Of a stretch of 64,000 bases of DNA, positions 1-18,719 are shown one piece after another. Numbering within the stretch: position 1 is the first letter of the stretch; each line of letters begins with the position of its first letter. Position numbers and translations under genes: made by a program. Source of the DNA: an uncultured Prochlorococcus sp. (GTDB lineage Bacteria > Cyanobacteriota > Cyanobacteriia > PCC-6307 > Cyanobiaceae); NCBI GenBank assembly GCA_902622705.1, contig CACNQT010000003.1:36903-100902 (forward strand), read 5' to 3'. The notes beneath the pieces are model-generated. The model was not told where the DNA came from. It saw only the letters and a list, made by a program, of their open reading frames with translations, and did no database searches.

Positions 1-133
1 AGAAATAAATATTTCAGGAAGAAATAAAAACAATCTCTTTAATAAAAAATGGTCTTTCCTATTAATTTAACGGCAAATTATTTCGATATGATTAAAATAT
101 CAAATATGTTTCTAAGTAAATATACTTTCTCAA

Positions 134-2887
134 ATGTTTTACTGTCAGAAGCAAAAATGTATCCCCTATCATATATTTTTACTGTGGTTTTTAATTAACT
201 ATGTCCCAAAAAGTTATGCAGAAATAAATTTAGATAAAAATATTCAATCCGCAACAATAATTAATGCGGTAGAAGGGGGTAAATGCATAACTGGAAATTG
301 CATAGTTTCTGGAGGAGATAAGAGTGGTGCCAATATCTTTCATCGATTTAATTCATTCGATACTAGAGGTTCAATAAATAGTGTTCTTTTTAAAAATGAG
401 AACTATAAAAATGTAATTGTTGGAGTATCTTCGTCAAGAGGAAGCTTTATAAATAAACCAATATCTTTATCTGAAAAAGGAAATTTATTTTGGATTTCAC
501 CTGGAGGCATAAGTTTTGATAGTGGAGCAGATTTTATAAACACTTCTCAACTTCATTTGAGCACTTCTAATACATTAGATTTTTCAAATGGGGTTTTTGA
601 TGTTTTTAGTAACAAAAAATATCATTTAAACCAATTAAATAAAAAACCTTCTATTGTCGCAGATACGACTGCTCCTTCCGTCAAAGAGATTAAAACAAAA
701 AATAAAAATGGCTCATATAAAAAAGGAGATCAAATTGAAATAAACATAAAATTTTCAGAGCCTATTTACGTAATTGGGAATACTGATTTAACATTAAATA
801 CGGGAAATAAGGCTATTTATTCCTCTGGGAATGGGACGGACAATCTAACATTTATATACAAAATTAAAGATGGGGATAGCACCTCAAAACTTGATTATGC
901 ATCCGAAAATGCATTATCTGGGAACCTTAAAGATAGGGCTTTTAATAATGCGATCCTTACTCTTTCGACACCTGGTAAAGGATTTGGAAAATCTATTTCA
1001 ATTAATGTTATACCAACTAACTTTGAAACACCAAGCGAAAAAGTTACTACTCCAAAACCAACTTCACTAACTATTAGGGGTGGTGATACTAACTCAGCAA
1101 ATCCCTCTTCTTTTGTAAGTGGAGGTAGAGGTCCTTCACAAATAAGAGTTTCTGAAGGCGGCCCTGTTTCCCCACCAAGAAGCATTGGTGGCGATGGAGT
1201 AAGAGTAAGTTTAACGCTCGATAGTACTCAAGGAATGGCTGACAAAGCCCCGCCAGCTCCCTCTTCTGATCTAGGAGGAAGAGATCCTTCCTCTATAAAA
1301 GAAGAAAGGAAAAGCAAATCTTCTAGCACTAAAAATAAAAGCTCATCCTCTGACTCCCGAGGTAATAAATCAGTTGATAAAAATTATTCTGATTCAGAAA
1401 AAGTAAATAAAAAAACTTCAAAGCCCTCAAAAACTCCAGGAGATAGGAACAAAAAAGGGGGAGATTTAACAAAAGAGAATATTAATGAAGCAAGAAGAAT
1501 TACCTTTGCAAAAGTTCCAAATAAGGAAGTCCTCGCAAACTTAAATAAATTTATGAATAGAAACATAACAAATACTATTGATGTTCTTAATTTAGATAAA
1601 TCACTTAATTCTGGAAGAAATCTATTTGATATACAAAGGGATTTCAAAATAGCCAAATCAAAGATAAGAAATACCTCATCTCTCTCAACATTATTTTATG
1701 GAGAAAAATTATATGCCTCTAACTCCCAATCTCCGGACTACAAAGCTTCAAAAATGTTTTTTGAACGGAGTTTTTATAACCCTGCCGTAATGCATATTCG
1801 ATTTACTAAAGCTTCAGGAAAAACAACTACAGAAAATACAGATTCCTTTCTTGATATAACTTTGATTCCATCTGAAGGCGAAGTGATCGGGAAAAGAGTT
1901 GAATTATCAATGAAAGAATTTGGTAAAAATTTAGGACTTTTATATTCACAATTATCGCGACAAGAAAACTTGAATATTGAACTTGAATCTTCTCCTTCGA
2001 GAGTTTTAAATAACATGATTTTTGAGAGTATTAAGCCTGATTTAGAAAGATTAAAAGTAACTACATTACTTATTTCTGCAGATAGAGGACTGCAAGCAAT
2101 TCCTTATGCTGCCCTACATGATGGGGAAAATTACTTTGGTGATTCCTATGCTTTTTCACTTACACCTTCTCTAGGTTTAACAGATATTAGTATCTCTGAT
2201 AGTGAAGATAAAAAGTTACTAGCAATTGGAGCTTCAGAATTTAGAGAATTAGCTCCTTTACCTCTGGTAGGACAAGAATTATCAAAAATTGGAGGCACAA
2301 AAAACAAAGAAATTATTTTCAATAAAGAATTCACACCAGAAAGTTTCTTTGAAAAAGCAATTCAGGAAAAGTATGACATGATACATATTGCTACACATGC
2401 CGAATTCAAACCTGGGGGTCCTAATGCATCAAGATTATTTTCAGGGACAACACCAATAACATTAGATAATTTTTCAATTCTTAGGAAAGGACGAATTGGT
2501 AATCCTCTAGATTTGGTTGTTTTTAGTGCTTGTAGGACTGCTTTGGGTGATCCAGAAACAGAATTAGGGTTTAGTGGTTTGGCCCTACAGGCTGGAGCAA
2601 AAAGTGCCATCGGTACACTTTGGTATGTGGATGATGTAATGACATCTGCTTATTTTGTACAAATGTATAAGTTTTTAGATTTGGGCATTCCAAAAGCAGA
2701 AGCCATGCAGTTAACAAGAAGACTTTTTGCTCAAAAACTTATAACTTTAGAAGATGATAAATTAATTGGATTTAATAATTTACCTCTACTAGAAAATTTA
2801 ACATTATCTCAAAAAAGGCTTATTAAAAATGGTTTGAATAACCCATTTTTCTGGGCAGGGATAGAACTAATGGGTTCGCCTTGGTAA
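134..2887 (+). CDS. Exported CHAT (caspase-like) protease with N-terminal haemagglutinin/TPS secretion domain and an Ig-like repeat
   Basis: Signal-like N-terminus; TPS motifs (SGGDKSGANIFHRFNSF, NLFWISPGGISF); adhesin-type repeat DTTAPSV...FSEP...YSSGNGTDNLTF; S/K-rich linker; CHAT motifs LQAIPYAALHDG, HIATHAEF, VFSACRTALG, AIGTLWYVDD, NPFFWAG. Confidence 0.85.
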   Translation: MFYCQKQKCIPYHIFLLWFLINYVPKSYAEINLDKNIQSATIINAVEGGKCITGNCIVSGGDKSGANIFHRFNSFDTRGSINSVLFKNENYKNVIVGVSSSRGSFINKPISLSEKGNLFWISPGGISFDSGADFINTSQLHLSTSNTLDFSNGVFDVFSNKKYHLNQLNKKPSIVADTTAPSVKEIKTKNKNGSYKKGDQIEINIKFSEPIYVIGNTDLTLNTGNKAIYSSGNGTDNLTFIYKIKDGDSTSKLDYASENALSGNLKDRAFNNAILTLSTPGKGFGKSISINVIPTNFETPSEKVTTPKPTSLTIRGGDTNSANPSSFVSGGRGPSQIRVSEGGPVSPPRSIGGDGVRVSLTLDSTQGMADKAPPAPSSDLGGRDPSSIKEERKSKSSSTKNKSSSSDSRGNKSVDKNYSDSEKVNKKTSKPSKTPGDRNKKGGDLTKENINEARRITFAKVPNKEVLANLNKFMNRNITNTIDVLNLDKSLNSGRNLFDIQRDFKIAKSKIRNTSSLSTLFYGEKLYASNSQSPDYKASKMFFERSFYNPAVMHIRFTKASGKTTTENTDSFLDITLIPSEGEVIGKRVELSMKEFGKNLGLLYSQLSRQENLNIELESSPSRVLNNMIFESIKPDLERLKVTTLLISADRGLQAIPYAALHDGENYFGDSYAFSLTPSLGLTDISISDSEDKKLLAIGASEFRELAPLPLVGQELSKIGGTKNKEIIFNKEFTPESFFEKAIQEKYDMIHIATHAEFKPGGPNASRLFSGTTPITLDNFSILRKGRIGNPLDLVVFSACRTALGDPETELGFSGLALQAGAKSAIGTLWYVDDVMTSAYFVQMYKFLDLGIPKAEAMQLTRRLFAQKLITLEDDKLIGFNNLPLLENLTLSQKRLIKNGLNNPFFWAGIELMGSPW

Positions 2888-2924
2888 AAATTGTTATTCT
2901 TTAGTAAATAAAGATTTTAGAACT

Positions 2925-3566
2925 TTGAAAAATCTCGCATTTATTTTTTTAATAGTCTCATCACTTATCTTTCCTAATAAAATAAAAAGTCAAGATGAGA
3001 TGGTGAATATTGGTTTAGCTTTCCCTGGCAGGAGAGTTGGAGGAGGTACTAGAGGTGAATGTAGTGCAAGAAAAATAATGCATCTTGTCCCAGAGTCAAA
3101 TATTGCTTTTCAAAATGAGTTAGGTCATTTTGCATTAATTATTGGGCCTTCAAATGATCCTAAAGACATTAAAATTAACTTTAAAGAATTTGAAGAAACA
3201 CAAAAAAATAAGATTGATTTAAATGATTTTAAAATAAAAGCTTCTAAAGAAAAAGTATTTTTAATTTCAATTCCCAGCCAAGATGTTCCTTTTATTTTGG
3301 AATCTTCATTTAATTGTAATGATAATACTGATATGGGTTTTGACTTCAATTTTATACAAGATGATTCACCACCTGCTCAAACTTTAATCGCACCATCAAG
3401 TTACCAGGGAAATAAGAATAAAGAAGATAAAATGGTTTGGCTTTCTAAATTTTGTGATAGCAATATTTCACAGAGTTCTTTAAGCGAGAAATTCCAAATT
3501 GGTGAATTTTTTGATGAAAATTGGGCGAAAGAGATCAATGTTACTTGTATAAATAAACTATCTTAA
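2925..3566 (+). CDS. DUF928-like exported protein
   Basis: Signal peptide followed by PGRRVGGGTRGEC, typical of DUF928; lies between the CHAT and CHASE2 genes as in other cyanobacteria. Confidence 0.7.
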   Translation: MKNLAFIFLIVSSLIFPNKIKSQDEMVNIGLAFPGRRVGGGTRGECSARKIMHLVPESNIAFQNELGHFALIIGPSNDPKDIKINFKEFEETQKNKIDLNDFKIKASKEKVFLISIPSQDVPFILESSFNCNDNTDMGFDFNFIQDDSPPAQTLIAPSSYQGNKNKEDKMVWLSKFCDSNISQSSLSEKFQIGEFFDENWAKEINVTCINKLS

Positions 3567-3574
3567 ATGAAGAT

Positions 3575-5431
3575 ATGTTTAAGAAATTAATAAAAGCCTC
3601 AATCAATTCAAGTTTCTATTTATTAGTTATTTTATTTTGCTCCATTTTATCTTTTAGAGGTGTCACACAAAATCTAGATCTTATAATTTATGACTCATTA
3701 TTAAATAAATTTCCTAAAAAAAATAAATCAGAATCTAAAACTATAGTTGTTGGGATAACAGAAAAAGATATTGAAAAATATGGATGGCCCATTGATGATA
3801 TTTATCTTTTTGAAGTAATTAAAAATTTAGATAATGCTGGCTCTTCTAGTATCGTTCTTGACTTATATAGAAATGTAGGAGTAGGAAAAGGTGCAGATCA
3901 ACTTTCTTCCTTTAGCAAAGAGAATCCAAAGGTAATTAGTATTTTTAATGTTGCAGAAGGGATATCCTCAATTCCAGACTTTCCTGTAGAGAGGCAGGCT
4001 TTTAATGATATCCCGGTTGATGTAGATAATGTAATCCGAAGAAATTTGGTAGGGGTAGATCTTAAGAAATTTAATTTACCTCCACAATTTGTAAGCATTC
4101 CTTCAAGGATGGTTGAAATACATCAAAAATTAAATAATGAAATTTTTGATATAGACAAACAATTTAGTGAGGAGAAAATTAACACTATTAAAAAATATTC
4201 TGGAGGTTATACCAATGTTGATTCAAATGGATTTCAAATTTTAATAGACTACCCAAGATCAAATTATGTTCCAAAATATAGTATTGAATCGATATTAAAT
4301 AAAAACTTTTCTAAAGATTTTTTTAAAAACAAAATGGTTGTTATCGGCGCAACTGCACCATCACTTAAAGATATTTTCGCTTTCCCTTCGAGCAGATTCA
4401 TAAAAGATAGCCAACTTATGTATATAAGTGGAGCCGAAATTCATGCGCACAGAGCGAATCAACTTCTCTCTCTGCAAAATGGAAATAACCTACAAATTAA
4501 TACCATAAATCCAACACTCGAATTATTCCTAATAATTCTATTAATATTATCGACAGCTTTATATATAGAAAAAAGCAAGAAAATTTTGTATGGATTATTA
4601 GGTTTAATAATCATAATTTCATCTTTATCAATAGCTGTATTTTTATCATTTATTTCAGGATATTGGATTGAATTTTCCCTACCAATTATTTCTATTATTT
4701 TAGTTTCTACAATTTCATGGGTTAAAAAAGCCGCAGAACAGCAAAAACAAAAAGCTTTGATGCAAAAACTTTTAGGTCAAACTACATCCCCAGAAGTTGC
4801 GGAAGAATTATGGAAACAAAAAGATTCACTAATCGAGAACGGCAAGTTTCCAGGGACCGAATTACCTGTAACTATTCTATTTAGTGACACCGTTAGTTTT
4901 AGTAGTGTTTCAGAGAAAATGACCCCTACAGAATTATTAGACTGGCTTAATAATGGTATGGAAAAATTTGTAAAAATAATTTCAGAAAATGGAGGAATGG
5001 TAAATAAGTTTACTGGTGACGGATTCCTTGCCGTCTTCGGGGCACCTGTAAGAAAATCATTAGAGGAATCTTCCAATGCTTCAATTAAAACTGCAATTGA
5101 GATTAGAAATGCAATAGATTCTCTTATAGAGGATTCAAACAAAAAAAATCTTCCGCCTCTACGCTTAAGGATTGGGATTCATAGTGGAAAAATTATTACT
5201 GGATCTATGGGAGGCGCTGAAAAGATTGAATATGCTCTAATCGGAGATAGCGTAAATGTAGCTGCCAGACTTGAATCACTAAATAAGGAGAAGATGAACA
5301 ATAACTGTAGAATTCTTGTTTCTGGAGATAGTCTTAAGTTTTTAAAAAAAGAAAATTATAATATTGAGAATTGGGGAGAGTGCAAAGTTAAAGGGAGAGA
5401 ATCACTTGTCGAAGTTTATGAAATTCTTTGA
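3575..5431 (+). CDS. CHASE2-domain class III adenylate/guanylate cyclase
   Basis: CHASE2 motifs (VGITEKDI..YGWP, LDLYR, D.DNVIRR, VVIGATAPSLKD, GAEIHA), three TM helices, cyclase motifs LFSD, KFTGDG, RIGIHSG, IGDSVNVAARLES, VKGR. Confidence 0.92.
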   Translation: MFKKLIKASINSSFYLLVILFCSILSFRGVTQNLDLIIYDSLLNKFPKKNKSESKTIVVGITEKDIEKYGWPIDDIYLFEVIKNLDNAGSSSIVLDLYRNVGVGKGADQLSSFSKENPKVISIFNVAEGISSIPDFPVERQAFNDIPVDVDNVIRRNLVGVDLKKFNLPPQFVSIPSRMVEIHQKLNNEIFDIDKQFSEEKINTIKKYSGGYTNVDSNGFQILIDYPRSNYVPKYSIESILNKNFSKDFFKNKMVVIGATAPSLKDIFAFPSSRFIKDSQLMYISGAEIHAHRANQLLSLQNGNNLQINTINPTLELFLIILLILSTALYIEKSKKILYGLLGLIIIISSLSIAVFLSFISGYWIEFSLPIISIILVSTISWVKKAAEQQKQKALMQKLLGQTTSPEVAEELWKQKDSLIENGKFPGTELPVTILFSDTVSFSSVSEKMTPTELLDWLNNGMEKFVKIISENGGMVNKFTGDGFLAVFGAPVRKSLEESSNASIKTAIEIRNAIDSLIEDSNKKNLPPLRLRIGIHSGKIITGSMGGAEKIEYALIGDSVNVAARLESLNKEKMNNNCRILVSGDSLKFLKKENYNIENWGECKVKGRESLVEVYEIL

Positions 5432-5461
5432 AAATAGTTTGAGAAAAATTTAATAAGAGTT

Positions 5462-6139
5462 TTATTTTTTATTAGATCTTACTAGCTTGTAACAGAGATT
5501 TTTAGCTATAAGCGAATTTAACTTTTCAAATAATTCTGGTTTTCTATCTTTAATCTTTTGAAGTTTTGATTTACTCCAACTTATTGCATAAATATCTTTT
5601 GAAATAACATTTGCTGAGGTCTTATCGCCTGTTATAAAGGAAAATTCTGAAATCCAATCACCTTTTTTGAGAGAAGCAACTTCTTTACCATTCTCTAAAG
5701 TAATAGAAGCTCCACCATCAACTACAAATGATAAGTATTCAAATTCACTATCTTTTTTAACTAACTCAAGAGGACTTTTATTACTATGTTTCACTATTTC
5801 TGCAAAACTCAACATTTTTTTAAATTCAAATGGGAGAAAAATAGAAAAATATTTCTTATATGTTTCTCTCCAACCCAAAGGCAAACATTTTATTGATCTT
5901 GAATAGTAGTAAAGACTAATCATATAAAAATTTAAACTAAAATGAAGTACCGCCAGAAATAGTATTGATAAATTTTCAGCGGAATCTAATCCTGTCCAAA
6001 AACAAAAAATAAAGTTTGCGATTGATAAAAATAAAATTATGAATCTTAATGCTATTAATGAAGTACAAATAAATGAAAGGCCTTCACAAGTACCTAAAAA
6101 TGCCTCTACATAATCTGGGGTAATTATAAAGTTAATCAT
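5462..6139 (-). CDS. Membrane-anchored cyclic-nucleotide-binding protein (Popeye-domain-like)
   Basis: About three N-terminal TM helices, YKKYF...FEFKKML linker, cNMP-binding beta-roll (LSFVVDGGA...LKKGDWISEFSFITGDKTSANV). Confidence 0.75.
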   Translation of the reverse strand: MINFIITPDYVEAFLGTCEGLSFICTSLIALRFIILFLSIANFIFCFWTGLDSAENLSILFLAVLHFSLNFYMISLYYYSRSIKCLPLGWRETYKKYFSIFLPFEFKKMLSFAEIVKHSNKSPLELVKKDSEFEYLSFVVDGGASITLENGKEVASLKKGDWISEFSFITGDKTSANVISKDIYAISWSKSKLQKIKDRKPELFEKLNSLIAKNLCYKLVRSNKK

Positions 6140-6297
6140 TTATAACCATTAATAAATTAAAGTTCTTATTAATTAAAAGCATAAATAATTTTTGAAATAC
6201 TAGGTTAAAGAATGTTCTTATATCAAGATTTACTCAAAATTATATTTTTAAATATAATTAGATATATAACTTATAAATAAAGTAATAAATTTAAGAA

Positions 6298-7680
6298 ATG
6301 AAAAATCTAAGAAAAGATTCAGGATTTTTTAGACCTGGATTATCTAATTTTTCATCTATTCAAACTTTATTTGGAGATTTCATAAACGATAGAACTTCTC
6401 CAAGTCTTTTAAAAAATTATCACGATAAAAAAGCCAAAATTCTTACTGAAAAGAAATGGGATAATGGAGCACCTTACGAAAGAGTAATAGAAACCAACGA
6501 AGATCTAAAAGAAATTATTCAGAATCCAAACATCATAAAAAATTCTATTTGCATAATCGAACCAGCAGATCATGTTGGAAAGAATTTAATTGGAGAAGAT
6601 GTAAGAGCTTCTTCTAATATTGCATCTCTATGCCAATTCATATCAGATTGCGATTCAATACTTATACCTTTATGGAAGACAGGAACACTCGATAATAAAT
6701 TATTAATTGATTTATTACAAAACTCATTAGCAGTTTTTGTTGAAGGAGGTCATCCAACAGTAAAAGATGCAAATAGTTTTAAAGATTTAAATATATCATT
6801 AGATGAATTACAAGAATTTACTGAAGAATTAATACTTTCAAGAGGACTCAAAACTGCTCCATCTATATTTATTTGTCTTGGCCATCAATTAGCTGCTCAG
6901 GCTCATATTAGGCTTATAAAAAAGGCAGCCAATCAGATCGTAAATTTGATGAAGCCAGAAGTTATCTGTTCCAAGTGTCATTACGAAAATCTCTTAAATA
7001 CTTGCAAAGAAATAATAAATACTGGAGAAAATTTATCTATTTATAAGGATGATGATACTCAAGATGATATTCCCGAAATAGAAGTAGCTAAAGGTTGGGA
7101 TGATCCATGTTTTGCTGTAGCCCTAAATGAAGTTCCTGAAGTCGGTCAAGTTGAACTATTACATTATTCTCATGATGGCATTCATCAAAGTAAAGATTTT
7201 TCAAAATTACTATTGCATCATGAATTAACGAGTGAACAAAATGTAGGAATTGTTGAACAGTCAGTAACTTTCGAAAAAAATTTAAACATAGTTATGTTTC
7301 ATAGTGACGAGGTAAATGAAGAAGCAATATTATTTGCTAATTGGGCTTACGGGAAACTCCATAATTCAATTGCTCCAATAAGGAAGAATATCTCAGTTTC
7401 TGAATTTTCTTGGCTTTTAAGTTTACCAGATTCAATTGAAATCGTTTGTTCCACTAGTGCACAAGGGAAGCTATGTACTCAAGTTTCTGCAACTTGCATC
7501 AACTACACAGATTATGAGACACAACATAAAAGGAGATCTTTCACCTTCCAATTTCATCCTGAATTACTTGAAGATCTTAGGGAATTTAATAAATCTGGAA
7601 TGCCATCCTATGAAAAACTAAAAAATGATGATGGAATAAGAATGTTGATTAGGGTTATATACGAATCGATTACTGATTAA
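6298..7680 (+). CDS. Class I glutamine amidotransferase-like protein
   Basis: EGGHP oxyanion strand, FICLGHQL nucleophile elbow, FHSDEV, FQFHPE His-Glu pair. Confidence 0.7.
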   Translation: MKNLRKDSGFFRPGLSNFSSIQTLFGDFINDRTSPSLLKNYHDKKAKILTEKKWDNGAPYERVIETNEDLKEIIQNPNIIKNSICIIEPADHVGKNLIGEDVRASSNIASLCQFISDCDSILIPLWKTGTLDNKLLIDLLQNSLAVFVEGGHPTVKDANSFKDLNISLDELQEFTEELILSRGLKTAPSIFICLGHQLAAQAHIRLIKKAANQIVNLMKPEVICSKCHYENLLNTCKEIINTGENLSIYKDDDTQDDIPEIEVAKGWDDPCFAVALNEVPEVGQVELLHYSHDGIHQSKDFSKLLLHHELTSEQNVGIVEQSVTFEKNLNIVMFHSDEVNEEAILFANWAYGKLHNSIAPIRKNISVSEFSWLLSLPDSIEIVCSTSAQGKLCTQVSATCINYTDYETQHKRRSFTFQFHPELLEDLREFNKSGMPSYEKLKNDDGIRMLIRVIYESITD

Positions 7681-13366: not shown

Positions 13367-14836
13367 ATGATCAAATTTTTTAATACTTTAAGTAAAAAAG
13401 TTGAGGTTTTTAAGCCTATTGATGATGTAGTAAAAATTTATTGTTGTGGGGTAACTGTTTATGATTTATGTCATCTTGGTCATGCCAGAAGTTATATCGC
13501 TTGGGATGTATTGAGAAGATTTTTAATTTACAGTGATTTTAAAGTGAAGTATGTTCAAAATTTTACAGATATTGATGACAAGATCTTAAAAAGAGCGAAA
13601 GAAGAAAGCAGTTCAATGAAGGAAGTATCTGAAAAGAATATCATTGAATTTCATAAAGATATGGATTCTTTAGGAATAATGCGTCCGGATAGCATGCCAA
13701 GAGCAACGAATCATATATGCAATATCTGCTCCTTCATAACAATCCTTGAAGACAAAGGTTATGCATACTCTAGGGATGGAGACGTTTATTATTCTGTTTT
13801 CAAAAATAAAAATTATGGAAAGCTAAGTAATCAAAATTTACAAGAACAAAATATCAATCAGCAAGGAAGAATGGTTAATGAGGAAAATAGTAAAAAACTT
13901 AATCCGCAAGATTTTGCGCTATGGAAAAAAGCCAAAGATGATGAACCATTTTTTGATTCGCCATGGGGGAAAGGTAGGCCAGGATGGCATATTGAATGTT
14001 CAGCGATGGTTAAAGATGAATTAGGAGATACTATCGATATCCATTTAGGTGGTTCTGATTTGATTTTTCCACATCATGAGAATGAAATCGCCCAATCAGA
14101 AGCAGCTAATGGCAAAAAGCTAGCGAACTATTGGTTACACAATGGGATGGTCAATGTAAATGGACAAAAGATGAGTAAATCCCTTAAAAATTTTAAAACT
14201 ATCAGAGAGCTAATTAAGTCAGGTATAAGCCCAATGACTTTGCGATATTTTGTTATGACTGTGAATTATAGAAAACCACTTGATTTTACTGAAGAAGCTT
14301 TAAGGAGTGCTTCAGAAGCTTGGAAAAATATTAATGTAGCCCTTTCTTTTATGGATCTTACAAAAGGTGTTTTTAGATCTATTGATAAAGATGAATCTAT
14401 CGAAGAAGAATATAAAGAGAAAATAAGTTTTGAGTTATCTCAAAAAAAGCTTAAATTTTCTGAGGTTCTGGGAAATGACCTTAATACAGCAGGTGCTATT
14501 GCAATTGTTTACGATTTAGCGAAACCATTAAAAAACTTTTTAAACCAATTTCAAAGAGTTGAAGGTTTTGAAATAGACCTCAATGAAAAATTTTTTCTAC
14601 TTGAGAATTTTAAAACTCTTGAAAATTTGACTGAGGTACTTGGTCTTAAAAAAGAAGATTCAGTAAAAGAAAGCAAAATAAAAGAAGAAGAAATATTATC
14701 GCTTATTGATGAAAGATTAGTAGCAAAAAAGGATAAGAATTATGCGAAGGCCGATGAAATCAGGAATTTGTTAAAAGAAAAAGGTATTGAACTTGTTGAC
14801 CAATCAAAAGAAATCACAACATGGATAAGGATCTAA
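13367..14836 (+). CDS. cysS: Cysteinyl-tRNA synthetase
   Basis: CGVTVYDLCHLGHAR, GRPGWHIEC, KMSKS. Confidence 0.98.
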   Translation: MIKFFNTLSKKVEVFKPIDDVVKIYCCGVTVYDLCHLGHARSYIAWDVLRRFLIYSDFKVKYVQNFTDIDDKILKRAKEESSSMKEVSEKNIIEFHKDMDSLGIMRPDSMPRATNHICNICSFITILEDKGYAYSRDGDVYYSVFKNKNYGKLSNQNLQEQNINQQGRMVNEENSKKLNPQDFALWKKAKDDEPFFDSPWGKGRPGWHIECSAMVKDELGDTIDIHLGGSDLIFPHHENEIAQSEAANGKKLANYWLHNGMVNVNGQKMSKSLKNFKTIRELIKSGISPMTLRYFVMTVNYRKPLDFTEEALRSASEAWKNINVALSFMDLTKGVFRSIDKDESIEEEYKEKISFELSQKKLKFSEVLGNDLNTAGAIAIVYDLAKPLKNFLNQFQRVEGFEIDLNEKFFLLENFKTLENLTEVLGLKKEDSVKESKIKEEEILSLIDERLVAKKDKNYAKADEIRNLLKEKGIELVDQSKEITTWIRI

Positions 14837-14918
14837 ATTTTAAGAAAAAAACCAATTTGAAATTTTTGTTTTTTAAATACACCTTTAAATGGGAAGATAT
14901 TAGAAATATTAGAGAAAA

Positions 14919-16148
14919 TTGAAATACATTACTGTGCTCGGTTCTACTGGTTCAATAGGGACTCAAACTCTCGAAATAGCTAGTGAGCAGCCTGATAAGT
15001 TTAAAGCCGTAGCTCTTTCTGCAGGAAGAAATATTAATTTATTAACTGAACAAGTTAAAACACATAAACCAGAGGTAGTTGCAATTGAGGATGAAAATCT
15101 CATAGAAGATTTAAAAGATAATATTAATAACTTAGATTTGGATAGTGCTCCCTTAGTTTTGGGTGGAAAGGAGGGTATTAACGCAGTTGCAGCTTGGGAT
15201 AAGGCAGATACTGTGGTAACCGGGATAGTAGGCTGTGCAGGCTTAATCCCAACGATGTCCGCAATTAATTCTGGGAAAAATATAGCACTTGCTAACAAAG
15301 AAACCTTAATTGCAGCAGGGCCAATTGTTATTCCTGCATTAAAGAAAAATAATAGTAGGCTTTTACCTGCTGATTCAGAACACTCTGCCATCTTTCAATG
15401 TTTACAAGGATTGTCTAATTTTGAAAATGCAGATTTTTCAACAGGAGAGATGCCTAAGGGTTTAAAAGCCATACATTTAACAGCTTCTGGTGGTGCTTTC
15501 AGAGATTGGGCCATTGAAGATTTAAAGCATGTCACAGTTGAAGATGCGACTTCACATCCTAATTGGGATATGGGAAAAAAAATAACTGTAGATTCTGCAA
15601 CTCTAATGAATAAAGGATTAGAAGTTATAGAAGCTCATTATTTATTTGGGACCTCTTACGAAAATATCGAAATAGTTATCCACCCTCAAAGTATTATTCA
15701 TTCAATGATTGAGATGGAAGATTCTTCAGTATTAGCTCAATTAGGTTGGCCAGATATGAAGCTACCTATTTTATATGCGATGAGTTGGCCTGAAAGATTT
15801 AAAACAAATTGGAAAAGATTAAATCTAAGTGAAATAGGGAAATTAACTTTTAAAGAACCAGACGAGTTTAAATATCCATGCATGGGACTTGCCTATGCGG
15901 CAGGAAAATCTTCTGGAACTATGCCTGCAGTCTTAAATGCTGCTAATGAAATGGCTGTTGAACAATTCCTTAAAGAAAAAATTTCTTTTCAAGAAATTCC
16001 ATTATTTATAAGTAAAGCTTGTGAATCACATATGGAGAATTTGAATTTGAGTCCCAAATTGGAGGATATTCTTGAAGTAGACAATTGGGCCAGACTTTTT
16101 GTTAAGCAAGAAATTAAAAAAGGGAAAAAATACGTAAGTATTGGATAA
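14919..16148 (+). CDS. dxr: 1-deoxy-D-xylulose-5-phosphate reductoisomerase
   Basis: [42 protein letters not shown]. Confidence 0.98.
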
Positions 16149-16376
16149 AAGTGAATATTAAAAAGCATCTAAGACTCTAAACCCATTTACACCCTTTCAA
16201 GAAATCGCTAAGAACCCAGTTATTTCAATGAGTTTAAAGCATTAGATAAAGAGAGAGAGTAGCTAGTAGTGGGAGTAGTAAGCGTTTCATTTTTCTAGCT
16301 ATGGTATGAATAAATTTTAAAATTTAAATTATTCTTAAACTTTAATTGGTATTTTTAAATTATATATTCTTGGTAT

Positions 16377-17162
16377 TTGAAGATATTAAATCTAATTTTC
16401 AGAAGAAATTTAATAATTAAAAAAATTAAAGATATTCAATTTTTTATTATTATATTTCTATTATTCAAAATTCTTATAAATTTATTTAGTTTAGAATTTA
16501 TTGAGATGAACGATTTATTTTCTATACTAGTTGGATCAAATATTTTTCTTTTAAGTTTTTTATTAACAGGTGTACTAACAGATTTTAAGGAGGCAGAAAA
16601 GATCCCACCAAATCTTGCAACTAAAATTCATTCCCTTTACTTAGAAATTAATGCGATTAAATCATATAACCCTGAAGCAAACTTAGAGAGAACTCAAATT
16701 TCAATATTATCTTTATCTAAGTATTTATTAAATTGGTTAAAAGGATTTTCTTCAACTGATAAATTGATAGAAACTTATAATTCAGCTCACAATGACGTTG
16801 TTCAAGCCTCTAAAAATTATAAGGGGGATGTATCTAGTCTAAGAGGACGTTTGATGGGATTAATGAATGGAATACTTCAAGATGTTAATAGAGTAAGAGT
16901 TGTTAGAGAGACAGATTTTGCACCTTTTGTGGCATGGATGGCGAATTTTGTATCATATACACTACTTATTGGATTAGTTTTCGTTAAATCAAATGATCTT
17001 TTTAACTCATTATTTTATTTGTTTATAATTTCATTTTTTATATTATTGCTATTAAAAATTATTAGAGATATCGATAATCCATTTGATGTATCAAATCCTA
17101 AATCAATTGAAAATATTTCATTATTTCCTTTAGAAAAAGTGATAGAAATTATTTCTCATTAG
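16377..17162 (+). CDS. Four-TM membrane protein, bestrophin/DUF4239-like
   Basis: Two TM pairs flanking a helical cytoplasmic loop; IIRDIDNPF after the last helix. Confidence 0.55.
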   Translation: MKILNLIFRRNLIIKKIKDIQFFIIIFLLFKILINLFSLEFIEMNDLFSILVGSNIFLLSFLLTGVLTDFKEAEKIPPNLATKIHSLYLEINAIKSYNPEANLERTQISILSLSKYLLNWLKGFSSTDKLIETYNSAHNDVVQASKNYKGDVSSLRGRLMGLMNGILQDVNRVRVVRETDFAPFVAWMANFVSYTLLIGLVFVKSNDLFNSLFYLFIISFFILLLLKIIRDIDNPFDVSNPKSIENISLFPLEKVIEIISH

Positions 17163-17296
17163 CCCCTTAATTTAGATTGAATGTCAATCATTAATATCTA
17201 TATTAGTTTCTTTAACCTTTGTTAAAGAAGTTTCTTACAGTAGCTTGTAACATTGCCTAGAATCATCTAAAAGCAGTAAGGAAAAGGGATTTAAAG

Positions 17297-17644
17297 ATGA
17301 CAACATGGGTAAATAAACACCTTCTACTGTGCGCAACACCAACAAAACAGAAATGCTTTAAAGGCAATGAAGGTCAAAAAACATGGGAATGTCTGAAAAA
17401 GACTTTAAAAAAATTTGAGAATGATCCCTGTACAAAAAACGTTCATATATTAAGATCAAAAGCTGATTGTTTAAGGATATGTAAGAACGGCCCAATTCTT
17501 CTTGTTTGGCCTGATGGTATTTGGTATGAGAAAGTTTCTCCAGAAAAAATTTCAGAAATTTTTACCTCACATATTATTAACGGTAAGCCAATAGAAAAAT
17601 GGATTTTTAAAAAAACACCATTTTTAAATAGTCCTATATACTAA
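17297..17644 (+). CDS. Thioredoxin-like [2Fe-2S] ferredoxin
   Basis: HLLLCATP...KC, ADCLRICKNGPILLVWPDGIWY. Confidence 0.88.
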   Translation: MTTWVNKHLLLCATPTKQKCFKGNEGQKTWECLKKTLKKFENDPCTKNVHILRSKADCLRICKNGPILLVWPDGIWYEKVSPEKISEIFTSHIINGKPIEKWIFKKTPFLNSPIY

Positions 17645-18719
17645 TGAACCAGTTCTTTACGACTTCGTCTGACCAGCAGCCATTAATCGAGTGAAAACCA
17701 TTATGACCTCCTTTTTCAGTTATAAAAATAGTAAATTTATCAATAAATTTTCCTCTTAAATTCAATGTTGCATTATATGGAACCCAAGGATCATTCTTGG
17801 CATGAATAAAAAGCATTTGAGGTAATTTTTTTATTGAGTTTTGGATTCTAAATATTGGAGAAGCTTTAACATAATAATCTTCTAAAGAATTGAATCCCCA
17901 ACTAGGAGCTGTAAATTTCTGATCAAATTCCCTTATACTTTTTAAACTTCTAATTTTTTTTCTTAATTTCTCATTATTAAGAATTTTGCCTTCATCATTA
18001 AATCCGTCCCATAACTGATTTTTTAAGCGATGAAGTAACCATTTTTGGTAGATATAATTTCTAGATTTTTCAATACAGAGACTGCATGATGATAAATCTA
18101 AAGGGCTACTCACACAAGCTAGGCCATCTAAAAGTTTTTCTCCTTTGTTTTCATCGTAATCTAAGCAGGCATTTAAAAGAATTGTTCCGCCTAAAGATAA
18201 TCCAACTCCGTAAATTGGAAGATTATTCATCTTAATTAGATCTTTAAACTCTAAATTAATGAATTTTTTAAAATGATTAATTGCTGAAATAACATCACTG
18301 GAGCATCTAGCACAATAATTTCCTTTAGCTAAATATCTCGCAGATCCAGATCCTCTTAGATTCAATTTAAGAACTCCAAAACCATTATTTGCTAATTTCC
18401 TAGAAATTCTTCTTAAACCAAACCGTTTAGTTGAGCCCCCTAAACCATGAGTAACGATCACAAAACCTCTAAGCGAGTTTAAGTTTTCAGGTAATTCTAA
18501 AAACCCTAGAAGATAATCAAATTCAAATTTTTTAGAAAGAATTTTATTAATCGGAAAAAATATTTTTTTATTTTTTTTTGATTTACCAAAATCAATAACA
18601 AAAGTATCTCTCAAAGTTTGTAAGTCGCCACCTATCCAAGGTAAGACTTCTCTAAATGGTTTATTTTTTAAGTAATCTGAAAAACTAAAAGATATACTAT
18701 TATTTCTCCCCAACTCCAA
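17634..18719 (-). CDS. Alpha/beta hydrolase (YheT-like)
   Basis: HGLGGS, GLSLGG, NDPWVP, GGHNGF. Confidence 0.88.
   Translation of the reverse strand: MELGRNNSISFSFSDYLKNKPFREVLPWIGGDLQTLRDTFVIDFGKSKKNKKIFFPINKILSKKFEFDYLLGFLELPENLNSLRGFVIVTHGLGGSTKRFGLRRISRKLANNGFGVLKLNLRGSGSARYLAKGNYCARCSSDVISAINHFKKFINLEFKDLIKMNNLPIYGVGLSLGGTILLNACLDYDENKGEKLLDGLACVSSPLDLSSCSLCIEKSRNYIYQKWLLHRLKNQLWDGFNDEGKILNNEKLRKKIRSLKSIREFDQKFTAPSWGFNSLEDYYVKASPIFRIQNSIKKLPQMLFIHAKNDPWVPYNATLNLRGKFIDKFTIFITEKGGHNGFHSINGCWSDEVVKNWFISI

Follow-up and report, generated by a model that had tools for sequence, protein, structure and literature searches.

A filament-protease-cyclase gene block in high-light Prochlorococcus as a candidate trans-envelope cyclic-nucleotide circuit

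Genes at the locus

The window is a 64,000-nucleotide (nt) stretch of contig CACNQT010000003.1 from an uncultured Prochlorococcus sp., and its first 7,680 nt carry a gene block that includes a CHAT protease, a DUF928-like exported protein, a CHASE2 nucleotide cyclase and a putative cyclic-nucleotide receptor. An earlier interpretation made without database searches (the sequence-only reading) described five open reading frames (ORFs) separated by 37, 8, 30 and 158 nt, and the frames, their strands and these gaps all hold. Lengths below are in amino acids (aa), cNMP stands for cyclic nucleotide monophosphate and TPS for two-partner secretion.

1..33, minus strand: 5' end of the TpsB gene, a ShlB/FhaC-type outer-membrane transporter; runs out of the window
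134..2887, plus strand: TpsA-CHAT fusion, 917 aa; signal-like N-terminus, TPS-like domain, one Ig-like domain, Ser/Lys/Gly/Pro-rich linker, helical hairpin, CHAT protease
625..1480, plus strand: variable passenger region in the TpsA-CHAT gene; other modules lie here in orthologues
1520..1672, plus strand: two-helix hairpin, aa 463-513 of TpsA-CHAT; part of the separase/Csx29-like fold
1772..2884, plus strand: CHAT protease core; His755 at 2396-2398, Cys800 at 2531-2533
2925..3566, plus strand: DUF928-like exported protein, 213 aa; predicted Ig/FnIII-like sandwich, invariant Gly/Arg-rich N-terminal motif at 3021-3062, four invariant Cys
3575..5431, plus strand: membrane CHASE2 class III nucleotide cyclase, 618 aa; one transmembrane helix, CHASE2, three transmembrane helices, catalytic domain
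5462..6139, minus strand: Popeye-like membrane protein with a cNMP-binding domain, 225 aa; Pfam cNMP_binding, Thr174 at the position of the phosphate-binding Arg of CRP
6298..7680, plus strand: class I amidotransferase-like enzyme (GATase), 460 aa; Cys193/His420/Glu422 invariant

In Pfam the labels given earlier for CHAT (135.6 bits against a cut-off of 24, 3e-39), for CHASE2 plus cyclase (CHASE2 4e-41, Guanylate_cyc 9e-29) and for cNMP binding (7e-7) all pass their cut-offs. The others are weaker. The DUF928 label is borne out as remote homology (99% in a profile-profile comparison) but not by a Pfam DUF928 match; in "TPS-domain CHAT protease" the CHAT part is secure, but the TPS domain falls below the TIGR01901 cut-off (3e-5); and the Pfam GATase match (5e-5) is barely above its cut-off, with the Cys-His-Glu triad present.

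The gene block extends past the five ORFs, and TpsB and DUF3307 belong to it. The TpsB gene that the sequence-only reading had sought upstream is present and divergent, its minus-strand start lying at window position 33. It encodes 561 aa (L001:10348-12033) with matches to ShlB (6e-12) and POTRA_2 (2e-4) in Pfam, so that a TpsB with POTRA and ShlB barrel adjoins the passenger gene as a TPS pair. A DUF3307 gene (L001:10011-10340, match 1e-9) follows it in the same direction, and past the small genes beyond lie homologues of napA, narB, mobA and moaA. The TpsB start (window 1-50, minus strand) gives a short N-terminus lacking basic residues, an atypical signal peptide; some TpsB orthologues begin five codons earlier. 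An ordinary GMP-synthase-like GATase of 245 aa (L001:6834-7571), distinct from the 460-aa enzyme, lies 2.4 kb past DUF3307 and within the same island.

A promoter and terminator scan found fewer sites than in shuffled sequence and is uninformative. Metatranscriptome contigs from four of the 24 listed runs span 29-30 of 30 bins, which cannot show transcription, strand or level.

Distribution in Prochlorococcus

The block is real, under selection and mobile. In a survey of 285 genomes of the genus, 92 of them at least 90% complete, the cyclase gene occurs in 13 (about 5%; 5/92 among the more complete genomes) and the Popeye-like gene in the same 13, the two being convergent and adjacent in every carrier. 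Strong CHAT orthologues are present in 12/13 carriers (the G143 contig ends earlier) and also in G166, where the contig ends inside the gene. Among 15 close metagenome loci the cyclase lies beside the Popeye-like gene in 13, and the other two end just after it. The ratio of nonsynonymous to synonymous divergence (dN/dS) is 0.04-0.34 for all seven genes, with dS of 1.7-2.0 between two subtypes. In G133 and G034 the junctions join a 3' remnant of DUF3307 to a 3' remnant of the GATase gene, marking deletions of about 9.2 and 9.5 kb that take out the block. At these junctions (L119:7342-7349 in G133, L121:9438-9443 in G034) the DUF3307 breaks fall within 7 nt of each other, the GATase breaks differ and there are overlaps of 6-8 nt.

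Hitch-hiking on the nitrate island was considered as an explanation and rejected on the narB counts (6/13 carriers and 45/272 other genomes, with narB absent from G033, which is 99% complete); the block lies near the nitrate cluster and is not simply part of it. In G012, a subtype B carrier (L008:1976-3937, 14750-18012; L123:12800-17648), the genes flanking the block encode a serralysin-like RTX protein, a DUF6447 protein, one of PA14/Ig/RTX type and a type I secretion system. The ABC transporter of this secretion system carries a cNMP-binding domain and is a possible second target of cyclic AMP (cAMP).

Related loci in other picocyanobacteria

A scan of species genomes with a profile of the DUF928-like family gave 79 loci from the best 80 of 87 matches, and 68 of these lie outside high-light Prochlorococcus. 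Gene content was scored with custom hidden Markov models (HMMs); many loci are cut by contig ends and 28 are full-length. Across all 68 the cyclase is found in 65, CHASE2 in 62, an MscS channel with a cNMP-binding domain in 46, TpsB in 42, CHAT in 41 and DUF3307 in 39. The corresponding counts in the 28 full-length loci are 28, 28, 22, 25, 25 and 17. Gene order varies widely, and the site is mostly near alaS-speA-ndk (speA in 38/68). Synechococcus WH7803 has a native copy of the block (L059). The Popeye-like gene is in none of the 68, its sole cross-match being an MscS-cNMP protein. The idea that the genes are inherited as a unit is supported, the cyclase and the cNMP-binding gene being adjacent in 13/13 carriers of the genus.

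Freshwater Cyanobium-type loci (L031, L033, L035, L037, L044-L047, L072) have an extra SIMPL gene, one or two FecR-like genes and a second CHASE2 cyclase beside speA.

The Synechococcus island Syn_GI122 (Dore et al. 2020, PMC7522525) is described, in the portion of that paper available, as containing secreted CHAT proteins, surface proteins and adenylate cyclases that have cNMP-binding proteins or a cAMP-regulated MscS close by, and it is very likely the homologous locus. That portion gives island content without a mechanism, makes no mention of a DUF928, TpsB or Popeye-like gene, and deals with Synechococcus/Cyanobium rather than high-light Prochlorococcus (PMC7522525). Two supplements of the paper gave no match; the Prochlorococcus copy may be among the entries of its island tables. 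A literature search, in which most subscription papers were not covered, returned no study of the circuit and no paper joining CHASE2 with CHAT and DUF928, or CHASE2 with "CHAT domain"; DUF928 appeared in one paper.

The TpsA-CHAT filament and its protease

The His-Cys dyad (H755/C800) is kept in 53/53 CHAT ORFs. A model of aa 458-917 (predicted local distance difference test, pLDDT, 84) resembles Csx29, separase and DdvA, and the predicted match takes in two helices before the protease core; against Csx29 (7y9x_B) the Z-score is 28.2, with a root-mean-square deviation of 3.4 over 336 aligned residues. The fold search thus matched, whereas a sequence search of the PDB with the CHAT profile found nothing. 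Invariant aspartates, set against separase positions, suggest that the putative protease may prefer Arg.

TpsA-CHAT orthologues range from 917 to 1764 aa, and it is the region between the TPS-like domain and the hairpin that varies, with passenger modules that include a long repeat stretch, FG-GAP, Ig and Ser/Asp/Glu repeats. In three of four metatranscriptome runs contigs have loose ends at 624 and 1480, the borders of the variable region. An assembly artefact as the source of the short 917-aa allele was rejected, since this form is on four NCBI contigs.

Four relatives have the gene divided precisely between hairpin and protease core, so that the hairpin ends the filament gene and CHAT is a separate gene; the hairpin on the TpsA of these split forms was matched by HMM in L026 and L073 and recognized by eye in L069 and L060. 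The CHAT proteins of the split relatives have their own signal-like start and no TPS domain; since proteins that have a signal peptide but lack a TPS domain would be expected to remain periplasmic, the protease is most likely periplasmic and tied to the C-terminus of the filament. Four further loci have an additional CHAT paralogue that stands free and begins with a signal-like sequence. In FhaB and CdiA the C-termini are retained in the periplasm, and this is the model used here for the filament. By this analogy, and by that with the periplasmic CHAT protein DdvA (PMC11506125), the CHAT protease likely acts in the periplasm and not outside the cell, and the "extracellular" protease of the sequence-only reading is not sustained by the split relatives.

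Another exported CHAT protein, unrelated to the first and about 900-1300 aa long, is encoded at L151:5571-9128, L152:4296-8246 and L153:7903-11730 (G042, G006, G002). In these three loci it adjoins a conserved exported gene of about 250 aa and has neither a cyclase nor a TpsB or DUF928-like gene as neighbour; weak matches to it occur in 25 other genomes of the genus.

The DUF928-like protein

The 213-aa protein has no match to Pfam DUF928 (PF06051), the best relative reaching an E-value of 0.003. A search with its family profile recovers six true DUF928 members (E 4e-7 to 3e-6), and hhalign of the family against the DUF928 profile gives 99% over 103 columns, with the C-terminal helical part unaligned. 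By these profile comparisons the protein is a remote DUF928 homologue, sharing the N-terminal motif and a beta-sandwich. The N-terminal segment of its model is of low confidence and holds 13 invariant or near-invariant Gly/Arg/Pro-rich residues. Foldseek with this model gave no significant match, and VIA-align reached no more than Z 5-6.4, with Ig/FnIII sandwiches, an arrangement that is common.

Where both genes are present the DUF928-like gene lies at most 300 nt from the CHASE2 gene in 73/78 cases. Its linkage to CHASE2 and CHAT makes it a natural CHASE2 partner and a candidate protease substrate, roles that gene linkage would assign to it putatively.

The CHASE2 cyclase

Alignment to the CyaC and Cya2 structures places the metal-binding Asp pair at D438 and D482, the transition-state Asn and Arg at N561 and R565, and the adenine-specifying Lys at K478, and each of these residues is kept in 72/72 sequences. 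The product is presumably a cyclic purine nucleotide, most likely cAMP. The three carrier genomes tested have one class III cyclase each. Because that of the block is their sole such enzyme, cyclic-nucleotide signalling in these carriers appears to be an island trait that is gained and lost.

The Popeye-like protein and the receptor slot

The Popeye-like protein has N-terminal membrane helices (two above the hydropathy threshold) followed by a cNMP-binding fold. Besides its Pfam cNMP_binding match, it matches POPDC1-3 below the cut-off (7e-5, 23.5 against 28.1 bits), and Glu165 of the cNMP domain is kept. No cNMP-fused MscS was found in the five carrier genomes tested, and the other cNMP domains of G000 and G033 amount to a single 256-aa frame, probably NtcA, that is also in non-carriers. 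The Popeye-like profile has no match in 147 genomes sampled from the family's other genera. The presence of MscS-cNMP genes in relatives and their absence from the tested carriers suggest a receptor slot that is filled by a bCNG-like channel there and by the Popeye-like protein here. It is thus likely that the Popeye-like protein replaces the MscS-cNMP channel as putative receptor, and on comparative grounds this swap speaks for a membrane protein as the target of the cyclase's signal. The MscS-cNMP relatives keep the canonical Arg where the motif was read (38 of 50).

In G164 and G033 the cyclase is 97% identical and the Popeye-like allele 77-78% identical, which suggests in-place allele exchange between subtypes. 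A further Popeye-like/cyclase subtype, the third, lies on a metagenome contig (L139:441-7176); it is 67% identical, and the genes upstream of it differ and may be part of a mobile element.

The GATase

The GATase triad (C193, H420, E422) is invariant in 37/37 homologues; the enzyme has no relative among solved structures and no match in viral contigs. Its gene is beside the Popeye-like gene in seven of the 13 carriers, behind DUF3307 in five and unplaced in one. It is absent from all 68 module loci outside high-light Prochlorococcus. Among 250 sampled cyanobacteria it occurs in 11, in unrelated contexts, one of which has a cyclase 5.5 kb away. It is also found without the block in G251 (70% complete), and in G426 (99% complete), a genome with no match to the DUF928-like profile. 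Since its position changes and the gene occurs alone elsewhere, the GATase is probably a passenger, the weakest member of the block, linked to the module in high-light Prochlorococcus only. The output role that the sequence-only reading had given it does not fit the 68 other module loci or the 11 other cyanobacteria in which it is unlinked to the module.

A proposed circuit and its alternatives

We put at about an even chance the reading that the block is the high-light Prochlorococcus version of a picocyanobacterial block, in which a surface cue would lead through periplasmic proteolysis to the DUF928-like protein and CHASE2, then to cAMP and a membrane receptor, with the GATase probably a passenger. 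The core idea of the sequence-only reading thus stands as a working hypothesis, but its protease outside the cell and its GATase output do not. The filament would be exported N-terminus first through TpsB, leaving the linker, hairpin and protease in the periplasm. When the variable outer part is engaged or lost, the hairpin may change and switch the protease, which could then cut or bind the invariant Gly/Arg-rich loop of the DUF928-like protein, the CHASE2 partner that gene linkage suggests. The cyclase, whose catalytic residues are in place, would make a cyclic purine nucleotide, most likely cAMP, and the membrane receptor might in turn alter ion flux or act on a membrane partner. What CHASE2 binds, what DUF928 does and what bCNG channels are for are questions that this block brings together in one testable circuit.

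A more specific version, which we offer tentatively, makes the filament a trans-envelope trigger whose retained hairpin completes and switches a periplasmic separase-like protease; this would cut the invariant Arg/Gly loop of a DUF928 protein, here the long-sought CHASE2 ligand, and the cAMP formed would be read by interchangeable membrane receptors, in this case a bacterial Popeye-like protein. If true, wild Prochlorococcus would have a means of sensing contact, grazers or particles, and functions would be assigned at once to DUF928, CHASE2, bCNG channels and bacterial Popeye-like proteins.

Several observations weigh against the outside-in circuit, for which the support is comparative and predicted; gene order cannot give the direction of signalling. 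In the window allele the TPS-like domain scores 23.8 bits against the TIGR01901 cut-off of 29.1, and the long passenger stretch that orthologues carry after this domain is missing. The DUF928-like gene is at most 300 nt from CHAT in only 35/54 cases. The second adenine-specifying position of the cyclase, where Asp or Thr is expected, is Ala554 (Ala in 71/72, Gly in 1/72), which is non-canonical. In the Popeye-like cNMP domain Thr174 replaces the phosphate-binding Arg of CRP in 13/13, and the DSPE and FQVT motifs of POPDC proteins, as given in the accessible part of PMC6562197, are absent from the alignment; cAMP binding by this domain is therefore uncertain. The ten high-light sequences in a quick CHASE2 tree form one clade with two subtypes, so the 13/13 count and the receptor swap represent one event and not many.

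The main rival, rather unlikely, reverses the flow or makes it a feedback: the DUF928-like protein and CHASE2 would sense a periplasmic cue and the CHAT protease would mature or release the filament, with cAMP made in parallel. LapD/LapG control of an adhesin is the analogy. The linkage data fit it equally, and a protease fused to, or completed by, the filament C-terminus has the filament beside its active site. However, no cleavage site was located in the filament, and the intact catalytic cyclase with a linked cNMP receptor in two independent forms favours outside-in signalling. It is unlikely that the block is instead an anti-phage or anti-predator suicide module, in which a cyclase and a membrane cNMP effector would act in a Pycsar-like way upon envelope attack. 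The patchy island distribution (13/285), the hypervariable surface part and a generic similarity to the PycC and Pyc effector models of PADLOC are consistent with such a module, and DdvA is described in the available part of PMC11506125 as a periplasmic CHAT protein controlling a defence island. The PADLOC matches, however, span only the catalytic and cNMP domains, Lys478 points to ATP, the block of relatives is mostly at the alaS-speA-ndk site, and no defence genes were seen beside the block.

The full circuit first proposed, with a protease acting outside the cell and the GATase as output enzyme, seems quite improbable. It gains from a GATase gene that is in all 13 carriers, beside the block in 12 and kept there in two different positions, with its triad intact in all 37 homologues. 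The enzyme nevertheless has no cNMP domain and is missing from the 68 other module loci; it sits in unrelated contexts in the 11 other cyanobacteria, block-free in G251 and without a DUF928-like match in G426, and the stand-alone CHATs lack a TPS domain. Very improbable is the view that the Popeye-like gene just happens to lie in the same island, leaving the cyclase with no receptor in the block. The single origin of the linkage, the missing canonical Arg and nine distant Popeye-like matches that show no cyclase within the available DNA speak for it, but the gene has stayed beside the cyclase in both subtypes (dS 1.7-2.0) and despite in-place exchange of its allele in G164 and G033, and it fills the slot of an MscS-cNMP channel that is missing from the carriers tested.

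Comparison with known systems

In two-partner secretion of the FhaB/FhaC and CdiA/CdiB type, a TpsB with POTRA and ShlB barrel is encoded beside a TpsA of variable body. The window differs in that a protease of the caspase clan, with linkage to a cyclase, forms the cargo at the C-terminus and most of the filament body is missing. Pycsar systems pair a soluble pyrimidine-specific cyclase with a cNMP effector. In contrast, the window cyclase is of the membrane CHASE2 type with Lys478, the Pycsar assignment failed, and the PADLOC matches are at the level of domains.

The NsrA/CyaD1, CyaD2, CyaK/Clr system of Sinorhizobium meliloti (PMC13001267) is similar in combining an outer-membrane beta-barrel, CHASE2 cyclases, cAMP and a dedicated receptor, and it responds to a protein signal. 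The accessible text of that paper describes no CHAT protease, TpsA or DUF928, and its receptor is a CRP-family transcription factor rather than a membrane protein. DdvA/DdvS of Myxococcus (PMC11506125) shares a periplasmic CHAT of the separase/craspase type, trans-envelope signalling and an active site that helices from another chain are proposed to complete. It differs, as far as the available text goes, in its anti-sigma/ECF (extracytoplasmic function) output and tetratricopeptide-repeat (TPR) sensor, with neither a cyclase nor two-partner secretion.

The physiological roles of bCNG channels are not understood, according to the part of a review that was available (PMC13591265). The window Popeye-like protein has neither the MscS domain of these channels nor the DSPE/FQVT motifs of animal POPDC proteins. 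From the available parts of PMC13591265 and PMC6562197, it resembles both in being a membrane protein with a C-terminal cNMP-binding fold, and it is bCNG-like genes that fill the receptor slot in the relatives.

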